Shown here: piece by piece, positions 928 to 60,243 of the stretch
Position numbering within the stretch: position 1 is the first letter of the stretch
Layout: each line of letters starts with the position of its first letter
Source: an uncultured bacterium
Lineage (GTDB): Bacteria > Acidobacteriota > HRBIN11 > JAKEFK01
DNA: 64,000 nucleotides
NCBI GenBank assembly: GCA_963777505.1
Contig: CAVZQN010000008.1
Coordinates: forward strand, 384,001-448,000
Direction: 5' to 3'
Made by a program: the position numbers and the translations under genes
Notes under the pieces: generated by a model
Databases searched by the model: none
Seen by the model: only the letters and a program-made list of their open reading frames with translations
Told to the model about the DNA's origin: nothing

Positions 928-936
928 TGCTAGAAT
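928..936 (+). promoter_or_regulatory. Extended -10 promoter element (TGcTAGAAT) for the arc operon
   Basis: TGnTAGAAT lies ~165 bp upstream of the GTG at 1101; no well-spaced -35. Confidence 0.4.
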
Positions 937-944
937 TGGAATCT

Positions 945-1083
945 GTTTTTCGGGGGCAAAGGTCCGCATGTACTAACCACTCCATCTTGAAACGAATGTT
1001 TAACTCAACTGCCATGTCACTTAGATAAATTTGCGCCTTGGCAGCTGAATTAGATTTCGATGTGGGTGGTATTCGCGAAGAAT
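945..1083 (+). ncRNA. Candidate structured leader RNA (long imperfect hairpin)
   Basis: Pairings by eye: 976-986 with 1059-1070, 998-1014 with 1039-1055, 946-952 with 1076-1082, and a small GGGC-AAAG-GUCC hairpin; ends just before the AGGAGG RBS. Confidence 0.35.
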
Positions 1084-1100: not shown

Positions 1101-2414
1101 GTGAAAACCCGCATCCTTATCATGGGAGCCGCTGGTCGTGACTTCCATAATTTTAATGTGCTGTACCGCGAGAATCCTGATTTTGAAGTTGTTGCATTCA
1201 CTGCGACTCAAATTCCAAATATATCGGGACGAAAATATCCTGCGGAACTCGCAGGCAAATCGTATCCAGATGGAATTCCCATTTTTGATGAAAAAGAATT
1301 ATCCGGTCTCATCAAAAAATATTCAGTACAACAAGTAGTTTTTTCTTACAGTGATGTTTCGCACGAATATGTAATGCACAAAGGCTGCGAAGCGTTGGCT
1401 TCGGGTGCCGACTTTCATTTCATCAATCCTATTTCAACGATGCTTCCTTCGCAGAGACCAGTTGTGTCCGTCTGCGCTGTTCGTACGGGATCCGGTAAGA
1501 GTCAAACTACTCGAAAAGTATCTGAAATATTAAAAAATGCTGGGAAAAAAATAGCTGTTGTTAGGCATCCAATGCCTTATGGCGATCTTGTCGCTCAGCG
1601 GGTTCAAAAATTTGCAACAATGGATGATCTTGACCGGTATGACTGTACGATTGAAGAACGAGAAGAATATGAACCTCATATTGCACGTGGGGTTACGGTC
1701 TTTGCAGGTGTAGATTATCAAGCAATCTTAAGTGAGGCTGAAAGGGAAGCTGAGATTGTGGTATGGGATGGTGGAAACAATGACACTCCATTTTACCGTT
1801 CGAATCTTGAGATTGTTGTTGCTGATCCACATCGACCGGGACATGAATTAACTTACTTCCCGGGAGAAGTAAACTTTCGACGTGCGGATGTAATCGTCAT
1901 CAACAAGATTGATACAGCTTCGTTTGAAAATATTAATCGTATTCGACACAACATTCGCATAACCAATCCAAAAGCAGTCGTCGTTGATGCTGCTTCTCCG
2001 ATCTTTGTCGAAAATCCAGAACTCATTTTCAATAAACGTGTGCTCGTTATTGAAGACGGTCCGACACTTACGCATGGTGAAATGAAATACGGCGCAGGAA
2101 TTCTGGCTGCTAATAAATTTGCCGCGAGTGAAATTATTGATCCGCGCAAATTTGCCGTTGGAACGATTGCTGAAACTTTTAGGATTTATCCTGAAATTGG
2201 AATACTTTTACCAGCAATGGGATATGGACAAAAACAGCTGAAGGATTTGGAAGAGACGATTAATCGATCTGATTGCGATGTTGTCATCATTGCAACGCCT
2301 ATAGATCTCAGGCGGCTCGTGAACCTCAATAAACCTGCAGTTCGAGTTCAATATGAATTGCAGCCGATCGGCTCACCATCTCTTGAAGATGTGCTAAAGC
2401 CTTTCATATCCTAA
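1101..2414 (+). CDS. arcE: Arginine synthetase ArcE-like P-loop enzyme (COG2403 predicted GTPase / cDPG-synthetase family)
   Basis: N-terminal GAAGRDFHNFN, P-loop AVRTGSGKSQT, RHPMPYG, EEREEYEPH, WDGGNND, EDGPTLTHG, PAMGY; AGGAGG RBS; directly upstream of carbamate kinase and OTC. Confidence 0.75.
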   Translation: MKTRILIMGAAGRDFHNFNVLYRENPDFEVVAFTATQIPNISGRKYPAELAGKSYPDGIPIFDEKELSGLIKKYSVQQVVFSYSDVSHEYVMHKGCEALASGADFHFINPISTMLPSQRPVVSVCAVRTGSGKSQTTRKVSEILKNAGKKIAVVRHPMPYGDLVAQRVQKFATMDDLDRYDCTIEEREEYEPHIARGVTVFAGVDYQAILSEAEREAEIVVWDGGNNDTPFYRSNLEIVVADPHRPGHELTYFPGEVNFRRADVIVINKIDTASFENINRIRHNIRITNPKAVVVDAASPIFVENPELIFNKRVLVIEDGPTLTHGEMKYGAGILAANKFAASEIIDPRKFAVGTIAETFRIYPEIGILLPAMGYGQKQLKDLEETINRSDCDVVIIATPIDLRRLVNLNKPAVRVQYELQPIGSPSLEDVLKPFIS

Positions 2415-2416
2415 TC

Positions 2417-3361
2417 ATGCGGAACCAGATCGCTGTTATTGCATTTGGCGGAAATGCCATTCTGAAAGAAAACGAGCGCGGAACGCAGGAAGAACAAATC
2501 AGGCATACTGATGAAGCCTGCGATCTCATGTCACAAATTGTTCAACGGGGTCATGAACTCGTAATCGTTCATGGAAACGGACCCCAGGTCGGCAATATTT
2601 TGATACAAATGGAAGAAGCCGCAAATAAAGTGCCCTCATTTTCATTGGATGTTTGTGTTGCAATTTCGGAAGGAAGCATGGGTTATATGCTCGAACGTTC
2701 ATTGCGGAATCAGTTTAGAAAACGAAATCTTAAAAAAGAAGTAACGTGTCTTATTACTCAAGTGATGGTGGATCCGCGCGATTCCGCTTTTGAAAATCCC
2801 AGCAAACCGATTGGACCTTTCTTCACAGCATATCGTGCTGCGGCGCTGAAAAAGGAAAAAAAGTGGCCGATGGTTGAAGATAGTGGACGTGGATATAGAC
2901 GCGTTGTAGCTTCTCCACTCCCACAAAAAATAATTAACATCGATGTAATTAAAGCGCTGCTCGCACAAGGCATAAATGTTATCGCAGCCGGTGGCGGTGG
3001 AATTCCCGCTTATTATGACGGACACGATAACATCAAAGGTGTCGAAGCTGTTATCGATAAAGACTACACGAGCAGTTTGCTTGCATCGGAATTGAAGGCT
3101 GATCTATTTGTAATACTTACAAATGTCGATTATGTCGCAATTCATTTCAACAAACGGAATCAGAAAAATCTTACGAAGGTCCGGTTGAAAGAAATCAAAC
3201 GTTATTATGATAAGGGTCACTTCCCGTCCGGCAGTATGGGACCGAAAATTAAAGCGGCGATGGACTTCGTCGAAGCAGGCGGAAAAGAAGTAATCATTAC
3301 ATCTTCACGTGAATTATTAAAAGCACTTCGTGGACAATCCGGAACACATATCGTGAGATAG
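2417..3361 (+). CDS. arcC: Carbamate kinase
   Basis: AFGGNA, HGNGPQVG, PSKPIGPF, EDSGRGYRRVVASP, GVEAVIDKD, GSMGPK. Confidence 0.95.
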   Translation: MRNQIAVIAFGGNAILKENERGTQEEQIRHTDEACDLMSQIVQRGHELVIVHGNGPQVGNILIQMEEAANKVPSFSLDVCVAISEGSMGYMLERSLRNQFRKRNLKKEVTCLITQVMVDPRDSAFENPSKPIGPFFTAYRAAALKKEKKWPMVEDSGRGYRRVVASPLPQKIINIDVIKALLAQGINVIAAGGGGIPAYYDGHDNIKGVEAVIDKDYTSSLLASELKADLFVILTNVDYVAIHFNKRNQKNLTKVRLKEIKRYYDKGHFPSGSMGPKIKAAMDFVEAGGKEVIITSSRELLKALRGQSGTHIVR

Positions 3362-3365
3362 GTTT

Positions 3366-4307
3366 ATGAGCAACAGTATGAAACATTTTTTAAGTCTGAA
3401 AGATATAACTCCTGAACAGATGAAGGAAATTTTCGAACTGACGACGGACGTTAAAAAGAATTCCTCGAAATATTCAAAATCGCTTACGGGAAAAACGCTT
3501 GGGATGATTTTTCAAAAGTCCTCAACCAGAACCCGCGTTTCATTCGAAGTCGGAATGTATCAACTCGGCGGGCATGCTCTGTTTTTGAGCTCCCAGGACA
3601 TTCAAATAGGCCGTGGGGAAACGATTGCAGATACAGCACGTGTACTATCAAGGATGCTGGACATGATTATGGCGCGTGTGTTCGGACATGACATCGTTGT
3701 CGATCTTGCACGCTTTGGTTCAGTACCGGTCATCAACGGGCTGTCTGATTTTTCTCACCCGTGTCAGGCGGTTGCTGACTACTTCACACTCTATGAACAT
3801 TGGGGAGGAAATATTCAAGGGCGCAAAATCTCATATGTAGGTGACGGTAATAATGTTTGCCATTCCTTGCTTTTTGGTGCAGCAATTCTCGGAATGCATA
3901 TTGCTGTTGCTGCTCCGGATGGATACAAACCGGATCCATCGGTTGTCGAATTCAGTTCCAACCTTGCAAAGAAGACAGGTGGATCGATAGCGATTGTTAC
4001 AAGTCCAGTAGACGCAGTGAAGAATGCAGACGCCGTCTATACAGATGTTTGGGCTTCAATGGGACAGGAAAAAGAATATCTGGAGCGCAAGAAAATATTT
4101 GGAGACTATCAGGTAAACAAGAAATTATTTTCTCAGGCAAAACCAGATGCAATTTTCTTGCATTGTTTGCCAGCCCATCGCGGAGATGAAGTGACCGATG
4201 ATGTAATCGATAGTCCAAATTCAGCAGTGTGGGATGAAGCAGAAAACCGGCTTCACACACAGAAAGCAATTATGCTGATTCTTGCCCGAAATCATGGCTG
4301 GCTCTAA
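3366..4307 (+). CDS. argF: Ornithine carbamoyltransferase (ArgF/ArcB)
   Basis: STRTR carbamoyl-phosphate motif, HPCQ, DVWASMG, FLHCLPAHRG, EAENR. Confidence 0.95.
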   Translation: MSNSMKHFLSLKDITPEQMKEIFELTTDVKKNSSKYSKSLTGKTLGMIFQKSSTRTRVSFEVGMYQLGGHALFLSSQDIQIGRGETIADTARVLSRMLDMIMARVFGHDIVVDLARFGSVPVINGLSDFSHPCQAVADYFTLYEHWGGNIQGRKISYVGDGNNVCHSLLFGAAILGMHIAVAAPDGYKPDPSVVEFSSNLAKKTGGSIAIVTSPVDAVKNADAVYTDVWASMGQEKEYLERKKIFGDYQVNKKLFSQAKPDAIFLHCLPAHRGDEVTDDVIDSPNSAVWDEAENRLHTQKAIMLILARNHGWL

Positions 4308-5703
4308 GTACATTCGCTTTTTTCTTTCATTTCTGCTTTTAGCTTTTTCAATCAGTGCTGAAGAACCACATCTAAAAATTATTCGCGATCTTGCAGCCCT
4401 CGGTCCGCGCGTATATGAGACCGATGCTTCGCGAAAAGCTGCTCAGTATATTCATGATCGGCTCAAAGGTTATGGTCTTCCGGATGTTAAGCTTCAACCA
4501 ATTGAAGGTTCGCGCGGAGCCTTCAATGTAATCGCTTTTGTACCTGGAAAAGATCCCTCCAAACAAATCATCATCGGTTCACATCATGATTCAGTAGAGG
4601 AAGCCCCCGGCGCATACGACGATGGTGGCGGAACTTCAGTGATGATGAATGTTGCGCACCATTTTGCAGCGATGCAGCCTCCATATACTTTGGTGTTTTG
4701 TTCGTTTGATGGTGAAGAAGTTGGGTTTAATGGCTCTATAGCATTTGCTAAAAGTTTAACAAAAGAACAACGCGAAAAAACTTTGTTCATGCTTTGTCTT
4801 GAAATGATGGGATGGCAAAAAGGCTCATCAAACATTCAGACACTGAAGTATGAACTTGGTGGACGGAATCCAAAAGTCCAAAGTCTGAGTGGCCACGGAT
4901 TGTTAACACCTGCGCCGCTTACAAGATTGATCTTGCAGTCAGCACGAACGGCGAACATTCCGTTTGCGCATGGAGATCCTAACATTTCGTTGTTATATCA
5001 GCTCGGCGTGCGTTTGATGAAGGTTCGTTTTTATGGCGATGACATTGCTTTTCAACTTTCAGGGATTCCTGCAGTCATGTTTACCGATTCTTCTTTTTCA
5101 GCATTTTATCCTGACTATCATCAGCCTGGTGATGTCCCTCAGAATTTGTCCGAATCGCGTTTAGCAGAAATGAGCAGGCTGATTACAACAATCGTACATC
5201 GAGCAAAAGCGGAAGACTTTGGAAAACCGGTTGATTCAAAATCACAGCAAGAATATCTGACGCTTGGTCCGATTTTTCTCACACATGATGTGATGCGCGT
5301 CTTATATTTTGTTACTCTTGCAATCCTTATCTGGCATTTAATTGCACGTTATGGCAAAAATAAATTCGTTGTGGTGCTTTTGTTTGAAGCTCTTTTCCTT
5401 ACGAATCTGTTTAGCCATTATGCAACCTTTGCGTTTGTCGTATTTGGAGTATCAATCTGGCTTTATTTAATCTTTGAGTGGATCGGGTTCCGTTCATGGT
5501 GGCGCAATTTACTGATTTATGTCCCTCACCTCGCAATCGCTGCATTTGCAATTGCTGCCTGGCATCAGCAATTCGTCTATGGCACCTATGTCACCCGCCT
5601 CGACACCGTCTTCCTCGCCGTTGCCGTCATCCTCTCTTTCCTACGTATCAATAAGCTCCATTTACCGCAGAGTCACAAAGAATTCTCTGCGTCTTTGCGG
5701 TGA
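4294..5703 (+). CDS. Membrane-anchored M28 family (amino)peptidase
   Basis: Signal peptide; Zn ligands GSHHDS, GAYDDGGG, DGEE, YHQPGD; several C-terminal TM helices; overlaps the end of OTC. Confidence 0.85.
   Translation: MAGSKYIRFFLSFLLLAFSISAEEPHLKIIRDLAALGPRVYETDASRKAAQYIHDRLKGYGLPDVKLQPIEGSRGAFNVIAFVPGKDPSKQIIIGSHHDSVEEAPGAYDDGGGTSVMMNVAHHFAAMQPPYTLVFCSFDGEEVGFNGSIAFAKSLTKEQREKTLFMLCLEMMGWQKGSSNIQTLKYELGGRNPKVQSLSGHGLLTPAPLTRLILQSARTANIPFAHGDPNISLLYQLGVRLMKVRFYGDDIAFQLSGIPAVMFTDSSFSAFYPDYHQPGDVPQNLSESRLAEMSRLITTIVHRAKAEDFGKPVDSKSQQEYLTLGPIFLTHDVMRVLYFVTLAILIWHLIARYGKNKFVVVLLFEALFLTNLFSHYATFAFVVFGVSIWLYLIFEWIGFRSWWRNLLIYVPHLAIAAFAIAAWHQQFVYGTYVTRLDTVFLAVAVILSFLRINKLHLPQSHKEFSASLR
5664..5701. 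repeat. REP-like palindromic element between convergent genes (possible bidirectional terminator)
   Basis: accgcagagtcacaaagaa / ttctctgcgtctttgcggt form an imperfect inverted repeat; the right arm matches the copy at 9864. Confidence 0.7.
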
Positions 5704-5707
5704 ATAA

Positions 5708-6583
5708 TCATCGGGGGTGGGACCAGGGTGGAGGAGCGACTGGCTGACTACATGGAGTTTCAGCGGCGGGAGGCGCAACCGGAGCGAAGATGACCCCCAG
5801 CAAGATACCCAACGTAAATGGAATGATCCATTCAACTGGAATTAATCGCAGTTTTGTAAAAATCGATGATGTCAGTTTTGATTCGGTATCGTTTATCCGA
5901 GGCTGAATTTCTTGAATATACCCCGCAACCCACAACAAAAATAACACTCGATAACAAGTAATTCGATCCAGTTCAGGATCGGAAAGTATTTCTGCAAGCG
6001 AAGCGCTGCTTTTCAAATAATTCAACATCCGTTTTTCACCAGGCCGTAAAGCATGCTCAACTACTTCGAATTCACAGACGCGATACTGTCGGAGTACCTG
6101 CTCAGAAAATGCAACGGCACTTCTAATTTCCAGAGAGGCGCGGTCCGTTTGCAGCAAAATTTCAGATAATGGTAATTCGATTGGGATCATCTGCGGTTTC
6201 AATGACGCTAATTGAGATGAAAAAAAGAGATGGGTCCCCGAATGCATCAAAAGATGTGCGTTTGCATAACAATGCTCTTTCAAAAGATTTCGCAGTGAAT
6301 CGGGTTCGATTAAATTCTTCTGAACTACGGCAAGCCCAAGGGTTCGAGATTCAGTGATAAAAGATTGAGCCCATGTAAGCTTCTCGGGGTCAACTACACT
6401 GTTGTCATAAAGAAAGCGTGTGAAAGAATAATCGGCAGAAGTTGATGAGAAGCAAACGAGATCTCCATGTTTTACGGTCCAGTGCAAATAGCTTCGGCCA
6501 AGCTGGGCGGTGAGTGTCCCGCTTTTCTTAAAGTAACTCAGTTCACGGATCATTTCCCATCGGGAAAGAGCCTCTAGCGCCAT
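5708..6583 (-). CDS. DUF4388/PATAN-like domain protein with a C-terminal TM helix
   Basis: N-terminal L..LS..E.IREL....KSGTL pattern, GDLV, a helical-hairpin LG...V..NLI segment, C-terminal TM plus Pro-rich tail; coupled to the pilX-like gene. Confidence 0.55.
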   Translation of the reverse strand: MALEALSRWEMIRELSYFKKSGTLTAQLGRSYLHWTVKHGDLVCFSSTSADYSFTRFLYDNSVVDPEKLTWAQSFITESRTLGLAVVQKNLIEPDSLRNLLKEHCYANAHLLMHSGTHLFFSSQLASLKPQMIPIELPLSEILLQTDRASLEIRSAVAFSEQVLRQYRVCEFEVVEHALRPGEKRMLNYLKSSASLAEILSDPELDRITCYRVLFLLWVAGYIQEIQPRINDTESKLTSSIFTKLRLIPVEWIIPFTLGILLGVIFAPVAPPAAETPCSQPVAPPPWSHPR

Positions 6584-7932
6584 TGTTCGCTCCCCTCAAG
6601 AATCATTACAAATTCAAATGAGGGTAAAAAAGGATATCGAAATTTGGATGATTGAAAGTGAACTTCATCGACATCGGCGGCCACAAACATGGCTGAATTC
6701 AAAGCGATAGACTCTTGAAACCATACCGCCTTACCGCCATTTTCAATTACTGACAAAAAGCTATCGCGTTTTTCTGGTTCAATCACCAACGAAGATCGGC
6801 CGATTTCATTCTTCCAGCTTTCAATCTCAACAGGAGGAACTATCGCTGCTCCTGGTTCGACAATCAGGCTTGCTTCAATCCCGTCATAAATTGCACTTCC
6901 GAATGAAATCAGTAATGCATGAATGCGCACAAATGCCGGAGAGACGGATGAAATCCAGATCGCTCCGCCTGCAGAGATGCAGATCGGAAAACGTTGAGTC
7001 GACGTTTCAATCGGCTGAAGACTGCTATCTACAAAAATGTTTGAAATCGCCGAAATATAAATAGGGTGAAGTACTTTGGCGTCCGGAAGGTGTGAAATCT
7101 GACGATAGCTCTGGCGAATTCGAACTGCATCGTCAAACCAAAAATGAAGTACACCAATAGTTCCCAGATCAATTCCGCTATAGATCACACGCCAGCGTTG
7201 CATCGGCTCGGCTTGCAGCGTCACCTGATCAAGATTCATTTCATATTCAGTGCCATTCCAAAACAACGGATTTTGAGCGGTAATTAACAATCCGTCCGAT
7301 CGAGCGGCTTGAAAGAAATCATCCAGGGTATGAAGCGATGTGAGATCGGGGTAAGAAATGATTTGATCGGTCTTCTTTCGAAATGATGCATTGATTTCTG
7401 GTGTAACCACACCATGCACAAAGTCACGAAATCGTACCGTTGGAAGTGGCAAAGTGAGTCCATCTGAAGCGAATACTCTGCCATCAACAAATGAAGCCTT
7501 CTGCAATGTTTGAGCGGAATTCGTGAAGAGCGCGAAATTTTCTAATCTGACCTGTGAGACATTCAGATCCAGGGTCGAATGATATCGGCCTTTTTGAACA
7601 TCCACGCGCAGTGAATTAATGCCAGCGGTGTTCCATGGTGCGCTTAGTCCGGCCTTCACTTCGTATCCATTCCAAATAAATGGGACTAAACTTTGCCCTT
7701 GCCATCGATCAGGGTCATGGAAAAAACGCGGCGTTTCAGAATCCAAATTATGAGTGTCAATCATTAATCTTGAGGATTGTTCGCACGCAATTCTTGCATT
7801 TTCGTTTTCAAAATGGTTTCTGGCTGACGCGTAATAATTCCCCGAAATTAAGAGCAAAATCAGTGCAAATAATGTCAGAATCAACAAGAACATCAGGCTG
7901 AGCACTAAAGCAAAACCATTCCTGTCTTTCAT
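6574..7932 (-). CDS. PilX-like minor pilin / pilus assembly protein
   Basis: Likely start MKDRNG|FALVLSL (prepilin cleavage site, no Glu5, as in PilX/GspK); ATGA overlap with the upstream stop. Confidence 0.7.
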   Translation of the reverse strand: MKDRNGFALVLSLMFLLILTLFALILLLISGNYYASARNHFENENARIACEQSSRLMIDTHNLDSETPRFFHDPDRWQGQSLVPFIWNGYEVKAGLSAPWNTAGINSLRVDVQKGRYHSTLDLNVSQVRLENFALFTNSAQTLQKASFVDGRVFASDGLTLPLPTVRFRDFVHGVVTPEINASFRKKTDQIISYPDLTSLHTLDDFFQAARSDGLLITAQNPLFWNGTEYEMNLDQVTLQAEPMQRWRVIYSGIDLGTIGVLHFWFDDAVRIRQSYRQISHLPDAKVLHPIYISAISNIFVDSSLQPIETSTQRFPICISAGGAIWISSVSPAFVRIHALLISFGSAIYDGIEASLIVEPGAAIVPPVEIESWKNEIGRSSLVIEPEKRDSFLSVIENGGKAVWFQESIALNSAMFVAADVDEVHFQSSKFRYPFLPSFEFVMILEGSEQWR

Positions 7933-8624
7933 GGAGTCACCGAGAAAGAAGCCTGAATCAACCCGGAGCGCCAGGTCATAGTCAATCGACTGCCTGTCCA
8001 TTGGTAAAGAAATTCTTCGACTGGACCGAAGTAGGGTTGTGATTGTCCAGAAGGTCCAATCCAATAGAGCGCATTATTGTTATGAGCAAAACCATGGACT
8101 TCAACAGGCACAAAGTAACCGGAAAGAAGCTCCGGCTGGTTTAGAAATAAATCGACCAATAGATGCAATTCCTGAGGCTGCGGAAGTACATCCGTAACCT
8201 TGCCGTAATTCCATGAAAATTCCGCATCGGAAGTCATACCTGCAAGCGCCACCGTCGTTCCAATGGCAACACTTGCATCTACCGGGACACGCCAGATTGA
8301 CGCTTCATGAATGAATGGCATCGGATCTGCCATTGGCCGTGCCAGCGTAAAAGAACTTGAAGATGGCTGTCGTCCAAAATCCAATCCTGAGAAAAAGAAT
8401 GGAATATCAGACAGGACACTACTCTTCTTGAAGCGGCTTGCAGAGCTTTGAAAAAAAGCTTTGAACGCAAGAAGTCTATAATTCGATTCCTCCTCCGGCC
8501 GTGTGCGATCGATCATCATTTGAGAAAGTTGCATTTCAGCATCAAGAGCTTTAAAGCCGGCAAGAACGAGAACAAGAAAGAACGATGTTGCACATAAGAA
8601 TTCAACCAGAGATGAGCCGCGCAT
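7929..8624 (-). CDS. PilW-like minor pilin
   Basis: MRG|SSLVEFL prepilin-like N-terminus with Glu5 and a hydrophobic helix. Confidence 0.65.
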   Translation of the reverse strand: MRGSSLVEFLCATSFFLVLVLAGFKALDAEMQLSQMMIDRTRPEEESNYRLLAFKAFFQSSASRFKKSSVLSDIPFFFSGLDFGRQPSSSSFTLARPMADPMPFIHEASIWRVPVDASVAIGTTVALAGMTSDAEFSWNYGKVTDVLPQPQELHLLVDLFLNQPELLSGYFVPVEVHGFAHNNNALYWIGPSGQSQPYFGPVEEFLYQWTGSRLTMTWRSGLIQASFSVTP

Positions 8625-8628
8625 ATTT

Positions 8629-8979
8629 TTACTCCGAACGATAGAAGATGCTTTCTACAATCACGCTTGCTGCAGGCCGATAAAGCACCCGGCATTGCAC
8701 CTGGCGTGTTCCAAAATATGGAGTATTCAACTGCACCCGCCATTGAATTGAGAAAAGTCCATGCTCTTCTTGTTGTTCACCTTCTGATAAATCCTGCAAG
8801 GGCACGATCCGCAATTCCTCAATCTTTTCCAACAGAAGCAAAGTTGCACGCTGGTTCATTTTTCCTTTTCCGATCAGGTGAAGAGATGTCATATTTGTTC
8901 TCCCCAGAAACAGAAGGGCAAACAGAAGCAGAAACAAACTGATCATGACTTCTACATATGTAAACCCCCGGTTTCTCAT
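8629..8979 (-). CDS. PilV-like minor pilin
   Basis: MRNRG|FTYVEVMISL canonical type IV prepilin motif; 116 aa. Confidence 0.8.
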   Translation of the reverse strand: MRNRGFTYVEVMISLFLLLFALLFLGRTNMTSLHLIGKGKMNQRATLLLLEKIEELRIVPLQDLSEGEQQEEHGLFSIQWRVQLNTPYFGTRQVQCRVLYRPAASVIVESIFYRSE

Positions 8980-20000: not shown

Positions 20001-20075
20001 TCTTAGTTGTGTTAAAGTGAACAATCATTTTTCGCAATCAACCGGATAATTGTGCGAGAAAAGGATGCACATACA

Positions 20076-21662
20076 ATGAATGAAACTGATGATAATGCCT
20101 CCAATAGTCTTCAACGAATAACCCGTTTGACACCAGAAGAAGCCAATCTCCGCTTTGAGCAATTACAACTTAAGCTGCTTCCACTCTGGGAATCGATCCA
20201 GCAGCTCAGCATGGATGAACAAACGATTGTCGTTGTTCCTTCCATCACGATTGACTCGGCAATTGCTGCTGTAATGCAGGCATATGAAGAACGTTTCCTG
20301 TTCCTGCTATTCTTACTGCGTCAGCCTCATGCAAGATTAATTTATGTTACCTCACAGCCAATCTTACCCGGTATCGTGGATTACTATTTGGGGTTGTTGC
20401 CAGGTGTCATTATCAGCCACGCAAGGCAGCGCTTGTTTCTACTTTCTCCTTTAGATGGATCCGATCGACCGCTCACTGAAAAACTGTTGTTACGTCCGAG
20501 ATTCCTCGAACGCATCCGTTCATTGATTCCTAACCCGGATCGGGCTCACATGATTCCTTATAACACTACTGAACTGGAGCGTGATTTATCCTTACGCCTT
20601 GGCATTCCTATGTATGGTGCAGATCCGAAATTCTTTCATTTTGGTACCAAGACTGGATGCAGACAGCTTTTTGCAGAAGAGGGCGTTGCTCACCCAATTG
20701 GATTCGAAAATCTAAAGAGTGTTTCTGATGTGATAGAAGCAATTCAAAATATCCGCAGAAAGAAGCCAGATGTTAAGAAAGTCATTGTAAAACTGAATGA
20801 AGGAGTTTCGGGTGAAGGCAACGCAGTAGTGGATTTACAGCAACTTGCTTCGGCAGGTGATCGAGAAGACCGAGTGGAAATCGAAAATAGGCTTAAGCAA
20901 ATGCGTTTCGAATTGAAAGATGCAAATTATGAAGACTATTTTGACAAGCTAAAACTGCGCGGTGGCGTTGTTGAAGAACTCATTCTCGGTGAAGAACTCC
21001 GGAGTCCCAGTGTACAGCTTAGAGTGACTCCTATTGGAAAGTTGGAGTTGCTTTCAACTCACGATCAACTCCTGGGAGGACCTAGCGGGCAAAGTTACCT
21101 TGGAGCACGCTTTCCCGCCGATACTGCTTATGCCTCTATTATTAGCGAGCAGGCAGCAAAGATTGGCGAACGACTGGCCAAATCAGGTGTCATCGGACGG
21201 TTTGCAGTCGATTTTGTTGTGGTGCGGCACAAGGATGGTCATTGGGATCCTTATGCAATTGAGATCAACCTTCGCAAAGGTGGAACGACTCATCCATTCC
21301 TTACTCTGCAGTTCTTAACCGATGGTTACTACGATCCTAAGAAAGCTCAATTCTTTGCGCCAAGCGGGCGTCCCAAGTATTTTGTGGCAAGCGATCACGT
21401 CGAATCTCCTGCTTACAAGAGCTTAACTCCGGATGATCTCTTTGAGATCGTTATGAAAAACGGATTACACTTCAATCAGTCCACACAAATTGGAGTCGTA
21501 TTTCATATGTTGAGTTCGATTTCACAGCACGGCAGATTGGGACTCACTGCAGTTGGAGAAACGCACGAACAGGCATATCAAATTTATGAGCGTGCTGTGC
21601 GTGCTTTACAAGAGGAAGCAAAAGTCGCACTCAACGATCCAGGATTGCCTGAAAAACTCTGA
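20076..21662 (+). CDS. PGM1/BesA-related ATP-grasp ligase
   Basis: VVVPS, YEERFL, GTKTGCR..F, KLNEGVSGEGN, SPSVQ, LSTHDQLLGG, EINLRKGGTTHP. Confidence 0.8.
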   Translation: MNETDDNASNSLQRITRLTPEEANLRFEQLQLKLLPLWESIQQLSMDEQTIVVVPSITIDSAIAAVMQAYEERFLFLLFLLRQPHARLIYVTSQPILPGIVDYYLGLLPGVIISHARQRLFLLSPLDGSDRPLTEKLLLRPRFLERIRSLIPNPDRAHMIPYNTTELERDLSLRLGIPMYGADPKFFHFGTKTGCRQLFAEEGVAHPIGFENLKSVSDVIEAIQNIRRKKPDVKKVIVKLNEGVSGEGNAVVDLQQLASAGDREDRVEIENRLKQMRFELKDANYEDYFDKLKLRGGVVEELILGEELRSPSVQLRVTPIGKLELLSTHDQLLGGPSGQSYLGARFPADTAYASIISEQAAKIGERLAKSGVIGRFAVDFVVVRHKDGHWDPYAIEINLRKGGTTHPFLTLQFLTDGYYDPKKAQFFAPSGRPKYFVASDHVESPAYKSLTPDDLFEIVMKNGLHFNQSTQIGVVFHMLSSISQHGRLGLTAVGETHEQAYQIYERAVRALQEEAKVALNDPGLPEKL

Positions 21663-43082: not shown

Positions 43083-45366
43083 TCAAGGTTGCATCAAGTC
43101 GTCGCCGGTCGTCTTCTGTAAGAGATGGATTTGTCTGCGCACTTTGTCAGCATCGTTCGCATCGGGTGCCATTGAAAGATAGAGCTGATAGTTCTGGATT
43201 GCTTGCTTCGTGTCGCCTCCCTTGTGATATGAAGCGCCGATGTTGTACAGAAACTGCGGAAATGGTTTTTGTTCGTAGGCTTCGGCAAAGGCGCTCGCAG
43301 CTTCATTGAAGCGGCCTGCATTGTAAGCAGTTTGCCCGCGGTCAAACGCCGATTGGGCGGCTTTCAACGCATCTTCACGCAACTTGGTGATATGTGTCCG
43401 GACCTTCGCGGCATCCGGAGCATCCGGAGTTTCCTTAAGATACGCCTCGTACCTTTGCGCGGCGAGTTCGCGTTTGCCCATTTTATCAAGAGCAGCCGCC
43501 TGGTTGTAACGCAAAGCTCCCAACGGATTCTGCTGATAGGCGCCTTCAAATGCTTGCAATGCGTCTCCATATTTACCCGCGTTGTAGTGATCGTTGCCTT
43601 GCGCAAACAATTTTTCTGATTCGGCGACACCGGTTATTGTCGCTTCGCGACCACCCATGTGGGCACGAGCGCGTTTCTGCGCCTCGCGCGCTTCATCCGC
43701 GCGCGGAGCGTTTGGATCAGACAAATAAGTTTGATACGTGAGATCGGCTTCTGCATAACGTCCACCATCAAGCAACGCCGCCGCTTTGTTCAGAATAAAT
43801 TTCGAGTCAGGATATGTCCGAAATCCTTCCTCAAAAGCGCTGACTGCTTCGTTATATTTGTGTGCAGACAGCAGCCGATTTCCGCGCAACATCCACTCCT
43901 GACCGCCTTCACGTCCGCTAGCAGTAATCGGCGCCTTATCAGCTTCGGTACGCAACTTCTCAGCGCGGCTGTTAACCTTCTGAGCATCCGCTGCACTTGG
44001 CTTTTCCTTAGCATATTGACTGTAGCGCTCGGCCGCCGCGTAAGGGCGCCCCAGTTTTTCTAGCGACGCACCCATGTTGTATTTGAACTCAGGAAGCGGA
44101 TTGAGCTCATAAGCTTTTTCAAACGCATCCAGCGCTTCCTGGTATCGTCCTGCCTTATAGGCTAACGCTCCCTTATCGTACTCATTCCGTGATTCTTCTT
44201 TGGCAACGCCTACTTTCGCACGCTCCATCGCAGCTCGCGCTTCATCGGCACGCGGAGCATTTGGATCGGAGAGATAACGCTCATATTCCCTCACCGCCTC
44301 GGAATATCTGCCACCGTCGAGCAAGGCCGCTGCTTTATTCAGCATAAACTTCTCAGATGGAAACGTCTTGAATCCTTCATCGTATGCCTTGACCGCCTCA
44401 TTGTAACGATGTGCATGCAGATGCCGGTTCCCACGCGCCATCCATTCCTGGCCGCCTTCACGTCCAGTGGCGGTGATCGGTGCCTTATCAGCAGCCTCGC
44501 GCATTTTATTCATGCGATCTTTGACCTGAACCGCGTCTTTCGCAGTTGGCTTTTCTTTGAGATATTCCTGCAAACGGTCGGCCGCCGCATACGGACGACC
44601 TAATTTTTCTAGAGCTGACGCCTGATTAAATTTGAACTCGGCAAGGGGGTTGAGCTCGTAAGCCTTATCAAAAGCGTCCAGCGCTTCCTGATATTTTCCC
44701 GCCTTGTACGCTTCAGCACCTTTATCGAACTCAGTACGTGACTCGGCTACACCAGTAGCAGTCGCTTCGCGTCCACCCATCGCGGCTTTCGCGCGCTCCA
44801 TCGCTGCCTTTGCCTCATCGGCACGCGGAGCGTCCGGATCGGAGAGGTATCGTTCGTATGCCTGCACCGCCTCCGAATGACGGCCAGCATCTAATAAAGC
44901 AGAAGCCTTGTTGAGAAGGAAAGAATTATGAGGATATGTGCGGAAGCCTATCATCGTAGGCTTCAATAGCTTCGTTATAGCGATGCTCCTTAAGCATCTT
45001 GTTGCCGTGATCCATCCACACCTGCGCTTCTTTTCGAGCTTTCTCGAGACCTGGATCGGCAGACTTCGTGACAGTCGCTGTTCCACCGCCGATGTTAGGA
45101 GGTGCCGCGAATTGGGTACCATTCCTTCCGAGTTGTTCAGAGAGCTGCTGCTGAAGAAATATTTCGCCTGTTTTCATTGAGGCTTTCGCTTCGGTCCCGG
45201 CCTGCTTCATTGCCTGAACTGTATTAGAGTCAGCCTGGGTATTTCCCGCAGTTGCGTTTCCTTCTTGTTCTCCGCTCTTCTGGGTCTTATCCGCAGTGAT
45301 CTCGATTTGATCATCTGTCCGGACAGTTGGTCCTTGTGACATCGGGGGCATCGTATCCGTTCTCAT
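43083..45366 (-). CDS. Large repetitive TPR protein with a disordered N-terminus (one frameshift near 44955)
   Basis: ORF 44926..45366 runs into 43083..45122; three copies of a ~180-aa two-module TPR unit; AGAGGT RBS. Confidence 0.8.
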
Positions 45367-45655: not shown

Positions 45656-45761
45656 GTTGTAAGTCTTCGATGATCCTGATGAGTCCCAAAATCGCTCCGC
45701 GCACGTCGGAGTGATGGGATGCAATACTGCTTCATATGGGATTAAACGAAAGGAGGCTTTA

Positions 45762-47239
45762 ATGAAAAAGCTTAGCATTATATTCATACTAATAGTGTCG
45801 ATGACACTCAGCGTTTCTGCTCAGAGTCAAACCCGAACGGAAAAAGATCTACTTGGGGAAAAACAGATTCCGGCAGAAGCCTATTACGGCGTGCAAACAG
45901 CGCGCGCTCTGGAGAATTTCCAGATCTCAGGAATACCGATCAATCATTATCCTGGATTCGTGGAAGCCTGGGCGATCGTAAAGCTTGCTGCTGCGCGTGC
46001 CAACCATGATGTCGGCGCGCTGAAAAAAGAGAAGCTGGATGCAATCGAAAAAGCCTGCAATGCACTCATGAAGGATAAGAAGTATCACGATCAATTTCAG
46101 GTCGACTTCTATCAAGGTGGAGCAGGTACATCCACAAATATGAACGCAAACGAAGTTCTCGCAAATGTTGCTCTAGAACTCAGCGGCCATAAAAAAGGCG
46201 AATACCACCATGTCGAACCACATGATGATCTGAACATGTCGCAGTCGACCAACGATTCTTACCCTACTGCTTTGAAGGTCGCTTTTATTCTACGCAACGA
46301 CAAATTGATCGGAGAGCTGGAAAAAACTGCAGCATCTTTCCGGGCAAAGGGTAACGCGTTTTTAAAGATTGTAAAGATGGGCCGGACAGAGATGCAAGAC
46401 GCTGTGCCCATGACAGTCGGACAGGAATTCCACGCTTTTGCTGCCTCGCTTGAAAGCGAAATCCAACTGTTGCGCGATGCAGAGAAGTACCTCTACGCAG
46501 TCAACATGGGAGGAACAGCGATCGGCACAGGCTTGAATGCTCCTAAAGGATATGCCGAAAAATGCGCCGCTCATCTTGCAAAGATAACTGGAAAGCCGAT
46601 TGTTCCTGCAAAAGATATGCTGGCAGCAACGTGGGATCAGCAAGGCTTTGTCGTTTATTCTGCTGCTCTTAAAAGCGTTGCGATAAAGCTTTCCAAAATT
46701 GCAGGCGATTTAATTCTTCTTGCAGCAGGACCCCGCGCAGGTCTTTTCGAAATCAATCTTCCAGCAATGCAACCTGGCTCTTCAATCATGCCGGGCAAGG
46801 TAAACCCCGTAATTCCTGAGCTTGTCAATTTAGTTGCATTCCGAGTGATGGGAAACGACTACACAGTGAATCTTGCTGCGCATTCTGGCCAACTTCAGTT
46901 GAATGCTTACGAACCCATCGAAGGTCTTGCGATTATGGAATCGCAGCATTTGCTCTTTACAACATCTTCGACTTTCCGAACAAAGTGCATCGATGGAATT
47001 ACTGTGAATGAAGATGTGTTGCAAGACTATCTCGAAAAAACAATTGGCATTGTCACAGCTTTAAATCCTGTGATCGGATATGAGAAAGCGACAGAATTAG
47101 CGAAAGAAGCTTTCGACACAAAAAAGGCATTTTGCAACTCATTCGTGAAAAGAAAGTTTTAACAGAAGATCAAATCCGAGACTTGCTGGATCCAGTCAAA
47201 TTGACCGGTCTTGATCCCGCTCAGTATCAGCAGAAGTAA
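45762..47239 (+). CDS. aspA: Aspartate ammonia-lyase with an N-terminal Sec signal peptide (one A missing in the homopolymer at ~47120)
   Basis: AGGAGG RBS; YYGVQTARA, GGAGTSTNMNANEV, MSQSTND, GSSIMPGKVNP; adding one A restores KGILQLIREKKVLTEDQIRDLLDP...* ending at 47239. Confidence 0.88.
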
Positions 47240-47250
47240 GGGAGACACTT

Positions 47251-48315
47251 ATGAAACTCATCAAATCACTTGTAACTTTTTGTGTTGTTCTATTATTTGC
47301 AGCCAGCCTGCAAGCTCAAGGTGCGAAGAAACCTCGCGTTGTAATCGTTGCTACGGGCGGAACGATCGCAGGATCAGCCGCGACTGCGACTGAAGCCGGC
47401 TATCAATCAGGAGCAGTTGGTGTCGATATTCTGATTGCAGCCGTTCCCCAACTGAAAGAAATCGCAGATGTGAAGGGAGAACAGGTTGCCAGCATTGGCA
47501 GTCAGGACATGAATGATGAAGTGTGGATCAAGCTAGCCAACAAAGTTAATGAATTGCTTGCCCAGCCTGACGTTGCCGGCGTAGCGATCACACATGGTAC
47601 GGACACACTGGAAGAGACTTCGTATTTTTTGAGCCTTGTTGTGAAAAGCGATAAGCCAGTTGTGATGACCGGATCGATGCGGCCTTCAACAGCCATGAGC
47701 GCAGATGGTCCGTTGAATATTTACAATGCAGTGGCAATCGCAGCAGATCCAACAGCGCGCGGACGTGGTGTCCTGGTAGCAATCGATGACGATATCCACT
47801 CCGCTCATGACGTGATCAAAACTCACACAACCGATGTTGCAACATTCACTTCCAATGAAGCGGGACTCGTTGGAGCAGAACTCTTTGGAAAGACGATCTG
47901 GTATCGCGCACCGCGTCAGGTCCATACCAGTAAGAGTGACCTTGCGCTTGTTGCAGGCAAAGGACTCCCGCGCGTAGATATCATTTATGCTCACGCAAGT
48001 ATGTCTCCGGACATGATTGATGCCGCAGTTCAAAACGGAGCAAAAGGAATCGTGATTGCCGGTGTAGGAGATGGAAATATGACAGCGCCTGCTATCGAAG
48101 CCGTCAAACGCGCAGTGAAAAAAGGCGTCGTCGTAGTCCGTTCTTCCCGTACAAACGGAGGGATCATCCGCCGAAACATCGAAGTAAATGATGATGAACT
48201 TGGCACGGTTGCATCCATGGAGTTGAATCCTGCAAAGTCCAGACCGTTGCTCCAGCTTGCTTTGTTGAAAACGTCCGACGTTAAGAAAATTCAGGATTAC
48301 TTCGACCGCTACTAA
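47251..48315 (+). CDS. ansB: Type II (periplasmic) L-asparaginase
   Basis: Signal peptide, ATGGTIAG, IGSQDM, HGTDTLEET, SADGPLN, GVGDGN. Confidence 0.92.
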   Translation: MKLIKSLVTFCVVLLFAASLQAQGAKKPRVVIVATGGTIAGSAATATEAGYQSGAVGVDILIAAVPQLKEIADVKGEQVASIGSQDMNDEVWIKLANKVNELLAQPDVAGVAITHGTDTLEETSYFLSLVVKSDKPVVMTGSMRPSTAMSADGPLNIYNAVAIAADPTARGRGVLVAIDDDIHSAHDVIKTHTTDVATFTSNEAGLVGAELFGKTIWYRAPRQVHTSKSDLALVAGKGLPRVDIIYAHASMSPDMIDAAVQNGAKGIVIAGVGDGNMTAPAIEAVKRAVKKGVVVVRSSRTNGGIIRRNIEVNDDELGTVASMELNPAKSRPLLQLALLKTSDVKKIQDYFDRY

Positions 48316-48324
48316 TTTATTAGC

Positions 48325-48393
48325 TCAACGCAGAGGACGTGGAGAGCGCAGAGTTTCATAAATTGATTCAAATTGCTGCGCTCTCCGCGTTGA
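48325..48393. repeat. REP-like inverted repeat pair
   Basis: tcaacgcagaggacgtggagagcgcagag ... ctgcgctctccgcgttga. Confidence 0.6.
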
Positions 48394-48411
48394 ATCAATC
48401 AAGGAATTTTT

Positions 48412-49737
48412 ATGCTCAAAGAATGTCCGAAAAGAACTATTGCTGTGATCCCTTGCGTCTGGTTGGCAATTCTATTCCTGTGGCTTTCGCCACCCCAGTT
48501 GTGCGCCCAGACAGATACTGCTCCCCACATCATAGAAGAAGAATCAGATACTGTTCCTGATGGCACAGAAGGAGAAGTGCTCGTAAAAAAAGGTGCGCCT
48601 AAAAAGCCATGGAATGAATTTGATCTCGGCTTTACTACGTTCAAATTTGGTGCAGGTTTTCTGTATGAATACGGATGGTTCTAACAGGATGAAGAGGGTG
48701 AACAGCAGGCAGAAGAGGGTGGATATAGACTGGATCCTACGGACAAAATTCGTGATTTTCGCATACTTTTCAGCGGACAGATTCCAACCGACAGAACAAT
48801 GACCTGGAAAACGGGGATCATGTATGACGCTCCATCCGGTCAATGGTTTGTGCGCGAGACCGGCGTAATGATCGGCGTTCCTGAATTGTGGGGACATTTA
48901 TTTATCGGCCGCACAAAAGAAGGAGTGTCCTTGAACAAAGTAATTAACGGATACGCCGGCTGGACGATGGAAAGACAAATGGCACTGGATGTGTTCCCCA
49001 TTCTTGCTGATGGAGTCAAATGGATGGGGTATCTACCCAAGAAGCGGTTTTTGTGGAATGCAGGAGCCTATGGCGATGCTCTATCAAAAGGACAGTCCTT
49101 CTCCACCTTTAAATGGCAATTAGCGACCCGCCTTGTCTGGCTCCCTATCTACGCAAAGGAAGAAGAAACGCTTTTGCATCTTGGCACAAGCATTCGTTAT
49201 GGCAAGCCAGTGGATGGCAAGATCAGGCTACGCTCTCGTCCTGAGGCTAACACTGCTCCTTACTTCATCGATACCGGAACTTTTGCTAGCGACCAGTCGA
49301 CCAGCTTGGGGTTTGAGGCATATTACACCAAGGAATCGCTAATGATCGGCTCGGAATTCTATTTGCATAATTTTAGTTCAGACGAGAAAGATGATCCGCT
49401 GTTCCATGGCGGAGACGTAGTTGTCAGCTACATTCTTACTGGTGAATCACGCCCTTATTCAACCGTTAGCGGAATATATGGCTTTGTTCCAGTAGCCAAA
49501 CCTGTTTGGAAGGGAGGACCAGGAGCCATTGAAGCGCTGGTTCGAGTTTCTAACTTAGATCTCGATGGTGGCACGATCAATGGTGGAAAATTCTGGAGGA
49601 TCACACCAATGGTCAATTGGTATCTTTCTTCATATGTTCGATGGGAATTTGCATACGGATATGGAACTCTGGACCGATACAATTTAAAAGGGTCAACTCA
49701 CTTTTTCCAAAGCAGAATTCAATTGAGCGTGTTGTGA
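48412..49737 (+). CDS. OprO/OprP-family porin, interrupted by an in-frame TAA at 48682
   Basis: The two ORFs are in the same frame; signal peptide, GRTKE...MER, RLRSRPE, YILTGESRPY, GAIEALVRVS, VNWY, C-terminal QSRIQL. Confidence 0.8.
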
Positions 49738-51690: not shown

Positions 51691-52005
51691 ATAATGCTCC
51701 CTTCAGTTGATTTATAAGCCGTATCATTCGAAGAACTTCTTCTGATTGTCACTGTCTTTCTGCTGGCGGCAGCCATTCCGTCAGTGACTAGGGAGTGGAC
51801 AAAATTCGTAAGCAGCAGTAAGATGGTGTGCGATCGATCACTTCTGAAAGCATCATATTATACAGATGAGATATGGCTATATAGACGTGGGGGATGGCGC
51901 CCAATAGACGCTCATGAATACTAACCGGATACTACGGTGATAGCCAAAGGATTAAGTTGCTTGGTTTGTGATCTGGTCGTGTTGGGGTGAACTCGTTACG
52001 ACGTG

Positions 52006-53292
52006 TCACTTCGCGTCGCCTGGATGCTCTTCGCCGATGCCAAGACCTTGACGATCGGCGACTGATGCGTCCTGCTTTTCATCCGCATCTTTGAAGGATC
52101 TTTCAACCGTGCCATGCAATCGTTCCTCCCAATGTCGCAGCGCTGCATGGCGCGTGGCGGGTAGAACTTCCAAGAGGTTGTTGATCAGAGCATTCATGCG
52201 CCGCATCACCTGCACACTGCTGGCGCCGCAGTAGCGGACTTCGTCGAGGGCCAGGCGCAGAAAATCGTTCCAAGTCGGGAATGGCACGACCAGCCGGAGC
52301 GCGCCCTGGTCGTCGCGGTATTTGCCGATGTCGAGTTGGCGATGACCCAATCGGATCAGCAGGTCCTCGATCTGGTCGAGTGCTTGGACTGCGGTGGTGG
52401 GATCGTTGATAGCGGGCGAGAGCGCCTTGATGGCGATGTCCACCACCAATCGGATGGCGTACTTGGGGTCCTGTTCGAACGTGCGTTCATCGCCGATCTC
52501 AAAGGCGCTTTTCAGCCGTTGTTCATCCAGCGGCTGGCGCGCGGCGTACACACGCACCAAAGGCGACATTTCCAGAATCGTGTCCCCCACCGCTGCCGTC
52601 ACCTCGATGATGGCGCCGGCTTCCTTGGCCAGGCTCAACAACTCCTCCACGCGCACCGCCTGTATGACCTGCGGCCGGCCGATGTGGGTCAGCGTTTGTA
52701 TGGCCCGCAATGCATCAAGTTCCGCAGAGCCCGTCGTCGCCAAGTTCGGAACGGATTTCGTGGAGGGATACAGTTCCTCAATGGCCTTCCGTCCATGGTC
52801 GCCAGTGAAAATCAACATTCGGTTGACCTGTAACATCCCGAGCCGCTCGATCAGGGCGATAAACATTCCAATACTGGCCAAGAGCAACCCGAACACCAGC
52901 CAGGCACTGAGGAAAGGGACCTTGCCCGAAGCGCTCCGGTCCACCCACGCCAGCATCACGAGCGCATACAGAAACGTGGCGCTGAACACACCCAGGGAAT
53001 GGGTCACGACCGGGTCGCGCGCTACCCAAAGCACCAGCCGCGGCGAGTAGGCAGTGGCGCTGAATTGCACCATGACGAACGCCAGCGAAAACACAATGCC
53101 GGTCAGCGCAATCATGCCCGAGGAGATGGAGGAACAAATCGCCATCGCTGCCGAAGCGCTCATTGGGGACACCAGGTCCGGCAGAAAGTGATGTTCCAGG
53201 CGCGGAAAAAATATGCCTACGATCAACGTCACCAAGACATAGGCAAACGGAATGATCCAGCCCTTCAGTTGAAGTTTATGCGAAGATTTCAT
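52006..53292 (-). CDS. DUF2254 family membrane protein
   Basis: QFSATAYSPRL, RTFEQDP, DIAIKALSPAINDPTTAVQALD. Confidence 0.88.
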   Translation of the reverse strand: MKSSHKLQLKGWIIPFAYVLVTLIVGIFFPRLEHHFLPDLVSPMSASAAMAICSSISSGMIALTGIVFSLAFVMVQFSATAYSPRLVLWVARDPVVTHSLGVFSATFLYALVMLAWVDRSASGKVPFLSAWLVFGLLLASIGMFIALIERLGMLQVNRMLIFTGDHGRKAIEELYPSTKSVPNLATTGSAELDALRAIQTLTHIGRPQVIQAVRVEELLSLAKEAGAIIEVTAAVGDTILEMSPLVRVYAARQPLDEQRLKSAFEIGDERTFEQDPKYAIRLVVDIAIKALSPAINDPTTAVQALDQIEDLLIRLGHRQLDIGKYRDDQGALRLVVPFPTWNDFLRLALDEVRYCGASSVQVMRRMNALINNLLEVLPATRHAALRHWEERLHGTVERSFKDADEKQDASVADRQGLGIGEEHPGDAK

Positions 53293-53407
53293 GGGCTTGC
53301 CTTTCGATCAATTACCACAGTCCGCTCTCATCGCCAAACAAACCAGTCCCGACGGTTTGCAATAGAATATGCGTAATGCGCACGGCTGTTCAAGTCTTGG
53401 TTTCATA

Positions 53408-56639
<3,232 letters not shown>

Positions 56640-57865
56640 CACGCACTCCCGGACTCGGCCGCCCAACAGCAGCGTCGTGAACGTCTCGTTGTGGTAGTGC
56701 GAGATGCCATCCTTCGCCAGTCGAGCGATTTCACCATATCCGTAGAACCCGGCCGCGGGCACATCGCCGAGCAGTTCGTTGACGATGCGCACCTCCTCTT
56801 GAGTGCGCGAACCCAGGATCTGCTTGCGCCCGGCGCAGGAGATGCACAGGGCGAGGGCCGGCTTGCCGCCGCCCCCGGAGTCCTTGGGAAAGTCATCCAG
56901 GGCGTGCTGAAAGGAGCTGCGGGTCGCGTCCAGAATCTGGTCGCGATTGGTTGTGGTGATGTGGACGCGGGCGCCGTCCGGCACATCGCCGAGGAAGTGG
57001 ATAGCAGCCGGCGGCTTCGTCGGTGCGGCCTGGAGCACGCAGGTAATAACCTCGACCATCATCGGCCGATACCGCCAGTGGATACTCCGTCAGGTGCGTG
57101 ATGTCGGCGTTGCCCAGGAACTCCCGGTAGAACGCGGTCGCGGGCTGGCCATCGATGGCCCGCACCACGTGGCCAGTCGACATCCGTGACCCGCCCCTCG
57201 CGCCCGATGGGACGCCATCCTGTATCGACACCAAAGGAGAAGACGACACCCTCCCCGAAGAGGAGGAACGGCACGGAATCCTGGAGCACTTCCGTGCCGT
57301 GGAACTGCCTGGTGCCCTTGAATCGCCACTGGTCGCCGGCGGTGCCGCCGAAGATCGGGACCGCATCGCCCAACTCCGCCCGCAGCGCATTGAGGGCAGC
57401 GGACCCGCTCACGGTCAGGCCGTCGGGCATGGTGATGCAGAGGCGCGGCGCTCCGCCATTGCCTCGACGATCTCCACCGCCGCTTCCGGCCAGACGCTGG
57501 ACCGCATCGTTCGCACTGGCGCGAATCGACCCCGCCACATCGGTCGAGACCGACCTGGCCACACCCGACACCGCGTGAAAGTCATCGCCCGAAAGCAAGA
57601 CCAGAGCGAGCGAATCTTCCGCAAAGAGGATGTGCGATGACATCTCACCGTCGGTCGTGCAACCGATGAGCGCGATCCCCGGCCACTGGGCGTTGATCTG
57701 CTCCAGCACAATCGCAAAGTCGTGATCGATCCCGGCAAACAGCATCGCCACGCGGGGCAAGGACGCTCCCAGCGCGACCTTCGCGCCAGCAATCAGTTCC
57801 GCCACCGCGTCGACCGAATCGACGTCCTGACTGTGGACTACACATGCTCGCATAAGTGACTCCAT
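56640..57865 (-). CDS. FIST N/C domain sensor protein (two frameshifts; possibly fused to the kinase)
   Basis: IGCTTDGE, PIFGGTAGD, GWRPIG, IDGQPA..FY..FLG, YPLAV, SCAGR, GFYGYGEI, HNET. Confidence 0.85.
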
Positions 57866-57869
57866 TTTA

Positions 57870-57904
57870 TTGTTTCTGTGAAAATATTTTTGTTTCTGTG
57901 AAAA
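57870..57904. repeat. Direct repeat TTGTTTCTGTGAAAA x2 (20-bp period)
   Basis: Copies at 57870-57884 and 57890-57904, just upstream of the FIST start. Confidence 0.7.
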
Positions 57905-58069
57905 ACGATGAGCGTGTTTCGCGCATCCCCTTTTTCATGGCGGCACGTGTCCGCTGCGTCGAGGCACGGACTCCGTAGGGTTAAAGCCGGTTTCTTTTCA
58001 GTCGTTTTCTTGTTCATGGTTTTGTTCCTTTTAGGCGATTCTTGCCCATCGAATCATTCAGGAAGTCCT

Positions 58070-59857: not shown

Positions 59858-59922
59858 ATATCATCCTTAAAGATTATTGCTCTTTCATCGGTTGTTTTGA
59901 CAATTCTAGTCCGTCGAGCCCC

Positions 59923-60231: not shown

Positions 60232-60243
60232 GGGTTATTTACT

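Follow-up and report, generated by a model that had tools for sequence, protein, structure and literature searches.

In a 64-kb stretch of contig CAVZQN010000008.1 (hereafter the window; the whole contig has 571,678 bases), four co-directional genes on the plus strand between positions 1101 and 5703 encode a putative arginine synthetase (ArcE, ORF1), a carbamate kinase (ORF2), an ornithine carbamoyltransferase (OTC, ORF3) and a membrane protein with the fold of M28 zinc peptidases (ORF4, here called M28). The first three genes, arcE-arcC-arcB, probably constitute a bacterial, catabolic arginine synthetase operon, and M28 would be a general exopeptidase that is a passenger or a loose nutritional partner; we place the probability of this reading at about 0.72. 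An earlier sequence-only reading had proposed that the first gene, which annotation pipelines label GTPase or cyclic 2,3-diphosphoglycerate (cDPG) synthetase, encodes ArcE and that the peptidase supplies it with arginine. Its re-annotation of the locus is correct and places a known pathway in a new lineage; the peptidase claim is not borne out beyond synteny within that lineage.

Assignment of ORF1 to the ArcE family

Judged by its sequence, ORF1 is a member of the ArcE arginine synthetase family. The characterized enzyme is TK2200 of Thermococcus kodakarensis (PMC11032458). Its published cloning primers were translated, a fragment with a TK2200-like end was located among cluster representatives, and the search was made with that fragment. 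P0396, from Thermococcus sp. 21S9, represents 201 sequences in a 90% cluster. It matches the TK2200F/R primer translations in its first nine residues and in eight C-terminal residues, with one extra residue, and its cluster probably includes TK2200. ORF1 is 65% identical to P0396 over 436 residues without a gap, and 64-66% identical to proteins from Pyrococcus furiosus, Pyrococcus horikoshii, Thermococcus litoralis and Thermococcus chitonophagus, all scored arcE-positive in Table S1 of PMC11032458. Against P0396 and these Thermococcales proteins the 437-residue ORF1 gives E 0.0, inside the homolog limits used in that report (E<1e-100, >380 aa). Of the 143 columns invariant across 64 ORF1 relatives, 141 are identical in P0396, and the residues of the P-loop (RTGSGKS, 128-134) are invariant in the 64 sequences. 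Neither ORF1 nor P0396 matches a curated Pfam or NCBIfam family above cut-off, and neither library has an ArcE model.

By comparison, true cDPG synthetase structures match ORF1 at E=0.002 by sequence and E 2e-8 by profile, and by structure show 12-13% identity with template modeling (TM) scores of 0.42-0.46. The family assignment, already made in the sequence-only reading, rests on this gap in identity (65% versus 12-13%), because a quick tree of 44 ArcE-family rows, which has no cDPG synthetase outgroup, adds little; it places ORF1 in a lineage clade with a support of 100, within a group with Thermococcales with a support of 86. The structure model of ORF1 (predicted local distance difference test, pLDDT, 91.9) matches the folds of cDPG synthetase and LpxK at 12-15% identity. 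LpxK (4EHY) ranks fourth with E 4e-9, in keeping with a P-loop nucleoside triphosphatase, and an LpxK-like fold has been reported for TK2200 (PMC11032458).

Relatives in other genomes reinforce the link between ArcE and carbamate kinase. On haloarchaeal plasmids, arcC is adjacent to the gene for the ArcE relative in a head-to-head arrangement at both loci opened of the three matches. P0250 is a natural fusion of a carbamate kinase (residues 3-309) to an ArcE (328-757); it is a single representative and could be an assembly artefact.

Other relatives show features of their own. In P0345 an intein that contains a LAGLIDADG endonuclease interrupts the P-loop. P0253, P0267 and P0280 carry long low-complexity extensions and are eukaryotic in look; a few eukaryotic ArcE homologs are mentioned in PMC11032458. 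The arcE gene of L003, a second locus of the host lineage, has a one-base frameshift at ~7741, probably a sequencing indel.

The acidobacterial host suggested from the sequence alone is probable. Among the matches listed, the closest named homologs of ORF1 (89%) and M28 (79%) are both 'Acidobacteriota bacterium' records. A low charged-versus-polar bias hints at a mesophilic host.

Carbamate kinase, OTC and gene content of the window

The neighbors of arcE are assigned by curated models. ORF2 scores 382 bits against TIGR00746 (arcC, cut-off 358) and ORF3 430 bits against TIGR00658 (OTC, cut-off 281), so both identities given in the sequence-only reading hold, and arcE adjoins genes for the two partner enzymes of the pathway. 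Putrescine carbamoyltransferase was rejected for ORF3, which scores 347 against a cut-off of 500. ORF3 carries the STRT and HCLP motifs, and its best PDB match is 1PVV/1A1S (E 2e-117), which we take to be P. furiosus structures. It scores highest with general ArgF-type models and is under the cut-off for PRK04284 and PRK01713.

The Pfam scan covered 51 of the 71 listed ORFs of the window; the remaining 20 overlap scanned genes in other frames. No arginine deiminase (arcA), ArcD/APC antiporter, argG or argH is among the 51 scanned ORFs, and the sole lyase is an aspartase, not ArgH. The lack of arcA and arcD noted in the sequence-only reading thus holds within the window, to which all our statements on gene absence apply.

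The M28 protein and its linkage to the arc genes

The M28 gene is intact and its product matches PF04389 with E 3e-30. Hydropathy and the model indicate a signal peptide (~1-22), a catalytic domain (~22-316) and five C-terminal hydrophobic helices (~333-450), in agreement with the exported membrane peptidase first described from the sequence. Because of the signal-like helix, the five helices and the lipopolysaccharide (LPS) genes nearby, M28 is probably a periplasm-facing enzyme of the inner membrane. Residues H97, D99, D109, D110, E141, E142 and H276 are invariant in 31 relatives, and E170 and Y275 nearly so; by alignment they presumably fill the metal-binding and catalytic roles of the M28 motifs HxD, D, EE, D/E and H. 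The fold and these di-zinc ligand and catalytic motifs place the protein among the M28 metallopeptidases. The subfamily consists of two clades, one of 27 lineage proteins at 45-99% identity and a sister clade of at least 93 proteins at 30-43%, one of them named Vicinamibacteria. The ESM Atlas holds only unnamed Acidobacteriota M28 clusters for it.

In a whole-model search, which extends over no more than residues 22-316, the fold matches of the M28 model are aminopeptidases and glutaminyl cyclases at Z 28-32, with general aminopeptidases ranking first. The arginine-specific AaaA (9OQA) reaches Z 29.2 by VIA (root-mean-square deviation 2.8, 259 aligned), compared with Z 32.4 for 2EK8. AaaA ranks 42 by Foldseek and by VIA is tied with leucine aminopeptidases and a glutaminyl cyclase, and the fold matches from both programs give no sign of an arginine preference. 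M28 therefore shares its catalytic fold and metal ligands with the M28 aminopeptidases (2EK8, SGAP, AAP, AaaA) and the glutaminyl cyclases, but differs from them in its five-helix C-terminal membrane anchor. It also differs in the motifs of its subfamily, GDP..S..YQ and DSSFS.FYP.YH, which recur in Vicinamibacteria proteins.

A genome scan with the M28 alignment gave 275 pattern matches, of which 126 were confirmed; the best 80 of the 126 were kept, representing 79 loci, and 46 weaker ones were left out. The 79 loci comprise one of the same lineage (L003), 47 of the sister clade and 31 with generic M28 proteins. The sister-clade loci come from 45 genomes (46 loci from Acidobacteriota, one from Actinomycetes); in 39 of them the sequence upstream reaches 3.5 kb or more, and 25 are flanked by 5 kb or more on each side. 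Genes for ArcE and OTC are present at one of the 79 loci (L003) and arcC at two (L003 and L050), while arcE, arcC and OTC genes occur at none of the 47 sister-clade loci. At L050, which lacks arcE and OTC, arcC is on the strand opposite to the gene of a distant, generic M28 ~3 kb away, and the locus was dismissed as unrelated. The conserved neighbors of sister-clade M28 genes encode a sensor Ser/Thr kinase, a carboxypeptidase-regulatory-like protein, DUF4388-FHA, DUF1015 and GDPD proteins.

Within the lineage, linkage is retained. The start of M28 is best set at ATG 4294, because P0125, a database protein of 99% identity, begins there, and the gene then shares 14 nt with the end of OTC. L003 keeps the arcE-arcC-OTC-M28 order and exactly this overlap at 62% M28 identity; the other 14 window genes tested are all syntenic as well, LPS, pilin-like and radical SAM genes among them. 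Five of the 27 lineage M28 proteins are on contigs exactly equal in size to that of a lineage ArcE, and one more is off by one base; two of these contigs are shorter than 10 kb and M28 identity goes down to 45%. Such pairs are found for none of the 93 listed sister-clade proteins, and at most 2 occurred in 20,000 jittered trials. The other 21 lineage proteins have no equal-sized contig; eight of the 27 are on contigs below 4.6 kb, and for the rest one contig size per 90% cluster is given, which makes a missing match ambiguous. The pairs are indirect evidence, and can be explained equally by simple co-inheritance and by functional coupling.

These data bear on the proposal that M28 was recruited into the operon as a periplasmic peptidase that releases arginine for ArcE, by analogy with arcT or AaaA. 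The intact metal ligands and export signal, the overlap retained in L003 and the contig pairs, which extend down to 45-50% M28 identity, agree with it. Free arginine is required, because ArcE is inactive on Ala-Arg and Arg-Ala (PMC11032458), and arcT and AaaA provide precedents (PMC4278536, PMC3426542). However, the arc genes do not accompany M28 in the sister clade, an outcome that the sequence-only reading had itself named as refuting, unrelated genes are equally syntenic in L003, AaaA does not stand out among the fold matches, no arginine importer is encoded in the cluster, and no M28 gene adjoins arcE at the two haloarchaeal plasmid loci opened. Such a role is unlikely. A more elaborate version, in which M28 is specialized for arginine from periplasmic peptides and perhaps passes it inward through the five-helix domain, is less likely still; if true, it would be a self-contained module leading from peptide to two ATP without need of an ArcD antiporter. 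Most likely, M28 is a general periplasmic exopeptidase, a passenger or loose nutritional partner rather than the dedicated arginine supplier of the sequence-only reading. Among Acidobacteriota it is a lineage-wide membrane peptidase, and in one low-GC lineage its gene closes the probable arc transcription unit.

Organization of the locus and other features of the window

The four genes (Table 1) are as tightly coupled as first described, with families confirmed by Pfam and NCBIfam for arcC, OTC and M28. Only 2 nt separate arcE from arcC, and 4 nt arcC from OTC. Close packing is weakly informative here, because the M28 stop is just 4 nt away from the end of the convergent DUF4388 gene (5708-6583) and overlaps also occur among several unrelated neighbors in the window. 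M28 is probably co-transcribed with the arc genes in the host lineage. A DUF4388 gene lies just 3' of M28 in both clades; in the sister clade it is a co-oriented DUF4388-FHA gene (L028, 4265-5479, and 10 other loci), and the DUF4388 proteins of the window and the sister clade have no close kinship.

Table 1. Positions of the arc locus genes and of the putative leader element in the window
Feature	Position	Strand	Description
Putative extended -10 promoter TG-n-TAGAAT (928-936) and conserved block downstream	928..971	+	~165 nt before arcE
arcE (ORF1)	1101..2414	+	437 aa, GTG start, AGGAGG upstream; arginine synthetase (ATP-forming arginine deiminase) family, by sequence
arcC (ORF2), carbamate kinase	2417..3361	+	314 aa; TIGR00746
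arcB/argF (ORF3), ornithine carbamoyltransferase (OTC)	3366..4307	+	313 aa; TIGR00658
M28 zinc peptidase-fold membrane protein (ORF4)	4294..5703	+	469 aa; PF04389, hydropathy, model

In the arcE leader, the 928..971 block is alike in the window and in L003 (upstream of 6777 there), and the rest of the intergenic sequence aligns poorly, as judged from these two sequences only. The block may be a promoter or possibly a regulator site. A sigma-70 scan did not pick up the 928-936 element, and Rfam has no match in the leader. The promoter and terminator scan was uninformative overall, with 1 promoter-like site observed against 10.3 expected and 6 terminator-like sites against 4.7.

Elsewhere in the window, three to four pilin- or pseudopilin-like genes occupy 6574-8979, with a weak N-methyl motif match in one only. 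An ATP-grasp protein is encoded between radical SAM and methyltransferase genes (20052-21662) and weakly resembles the amino-acid ligase BesA (146 bits, cut-off 750). A TPR-repeat protein with repeated units inside is encoded at 43083-45122. Consecutive genes for the aspartase, a type II asparaginase and an OprO/P-type porin (45711-49737) form a second amino-acid catabolic cluster. At 52000-63000 the GC content rises from ~0.44-0.48 to 0.55-0.60 and several genes are apparently frameshifted; this region is possibly an acquired island or an assembly join.

Discussion

The ArcE reaction has been established in T. kodakarensis (PMC11032458), and by homology ORF1 would have the same activity, converting arginine, ADP and Pi to citrulline, NH3 and ATP. 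OTC would then split citrulline by phosphorolysis into ornithine and carbamoyl phosphate, from which carbamate kinase would form ATP and carbamate with ADP. The pathway would yield two ATP per arginine instead of one, and ornithine and carbamoyl phosphate could also be used for biosynthesis. The direction here is probably catabolic, because a carbamate kinase gene is in the operon. Arginine may enter through a transporter encoded elsewhere or arise from intracellular peptide breakdown, as proposed for arc clusters that lack an antiporter (PMC5300872), and M28 may contribute free amino acids generally.

Several points weigh against this interpretation. The comparison was made with P0396, the probable representative of the 90% cluster of TK2200, and not with TK2200 itself. 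No assayed bacterial ArcE was found in the literature searched, most subscription journals being outside it. The absence of arcA, argG and argH was read in the 64-kb window only, so that a catabolic direction is no more than probable. The conserved overlap and the 5 of 27 contig pairs indicate that the linkage of M28 to the arc genes is stable within the lineage.

The operon could instead be mainly anabolic, with carbamoyl phosphate formed by carbamate kinase, citrulline by OTC and arginine, through fixation of ammonia, by ArcE, in place of CarAB and ArgG/ArgH, or could mainly provide biosynthesis with carbamoyl phosphate and ornithine. ArcE is reversible (Keq ~10) and produces arginine from citrulline in vivo, and a biosynthetic use has been proposed for bacteria without argG and argH (PMC11032458). 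The preference of ORF3 for ArgF-type models and a cluster without antiporter are in line with this, as is the provision of carbamoyl phosphate for pyrimidines and hydrogenase by ArcE and ArcB in T. kodakarensis (PMC13260591). However, the carbamate kinase of T. kodakarensis is unable to supply carbamoyl phosphate in vivo (PMC13260591), ArcE requires high ammonia (Ks 3.7 mM NH3), and in PMC11032458 co-location with arcC served as the sign of catabolic use. We consider a mainly anabolic role improbable.

That ORF1 is a cDPG synthetase or GTPase, as database names have it, is very nearly excluded: its close homologs in NCBI and JGI are indeed named 'predicted GTPase' or 'cyclic 2,3-diphosphoglycerate synthase', a mislabelling the sequence-only reading foresaw, and its ESM Atlas clusters are only 'putative GTPase/cDPG synthase', but Thermococcus ArcE homologs bear the same wrong name. 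The cDPG synthetase 8ORU is the best fold match of the model, and cDPG synthetase (PDB 8ORK, 8ORU, 9SXB; PMC10690619), to which ORF1 is a distant homolog, is the nearest solved fold. It differs from ORF1 in its low identity and gene context, and its 2,3-DPG-binding residues K145 and R146 are not retained, aligning to T129 and G130 of ORF1 in a weak, P-loop-anchored alignment.

The catabolic arginine synthetase operon resembles two known systems. T. kodakarensis has the same three enzymes (ArcE TK2200, ArcB TK0871 and ArcC TK2158; PMC11032458, PMC13260591). Its arc genes have scattered locus tags, whereas those of the window form one compact operon, with M28 overlapping OTC, in a probably mesophilic bacterium. 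The arginine deiminase operons of Streptococcus (PMC4278536, PMC6299155, PMC5300872) also combine OTC and carbamate kinase with a putative peptidase gene, arcT, in last position. They have ArcA where the window has ArcE and no ArcD, and ArcT is a putative Xaa-His dipeptidase, unlike the exported membrane M28. The 'ArcE' of PMC5300872 is an arginine/ornithine exchanger, an unrelated namesake. Much of this was known: PMC11032458 already reports arcE near arcB and arcC, its occurrence in Acidobacteria, the 'putative GTPase' labels and the distant kinship to cDPG synthetase, and terminal peptidase genes in arginine-catabolic operons (arcT) and an arginine-specific M28 (AaaA) are also known. In the literature searched, within the limit given above, no paper on a link between M28 and ArcE was found. 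Because ORF1 homologs number at least 8000 among the matches listed, the locus will not surprise specialists.

ArcE was described in 2024 and its role elsewhere was called unevaluated (PMC11032458); the ArcE assays in the literature found are from one hyperthermophilic archaeon only. A modeling study (PMC13763154) points out that the only curated ArcE comes from an archaeon, which has to be considered when arginine production is engineered. The operon described here, with its three genes and a host that is probably mesophilic, would be a handy candidate for the first assay of a bacterial ArcE. Because annotation pipelines name arcE a GTPase or cDPG synthase, arginine-based ATP synthesis may be overlooked in Acidobacteriota genomes.

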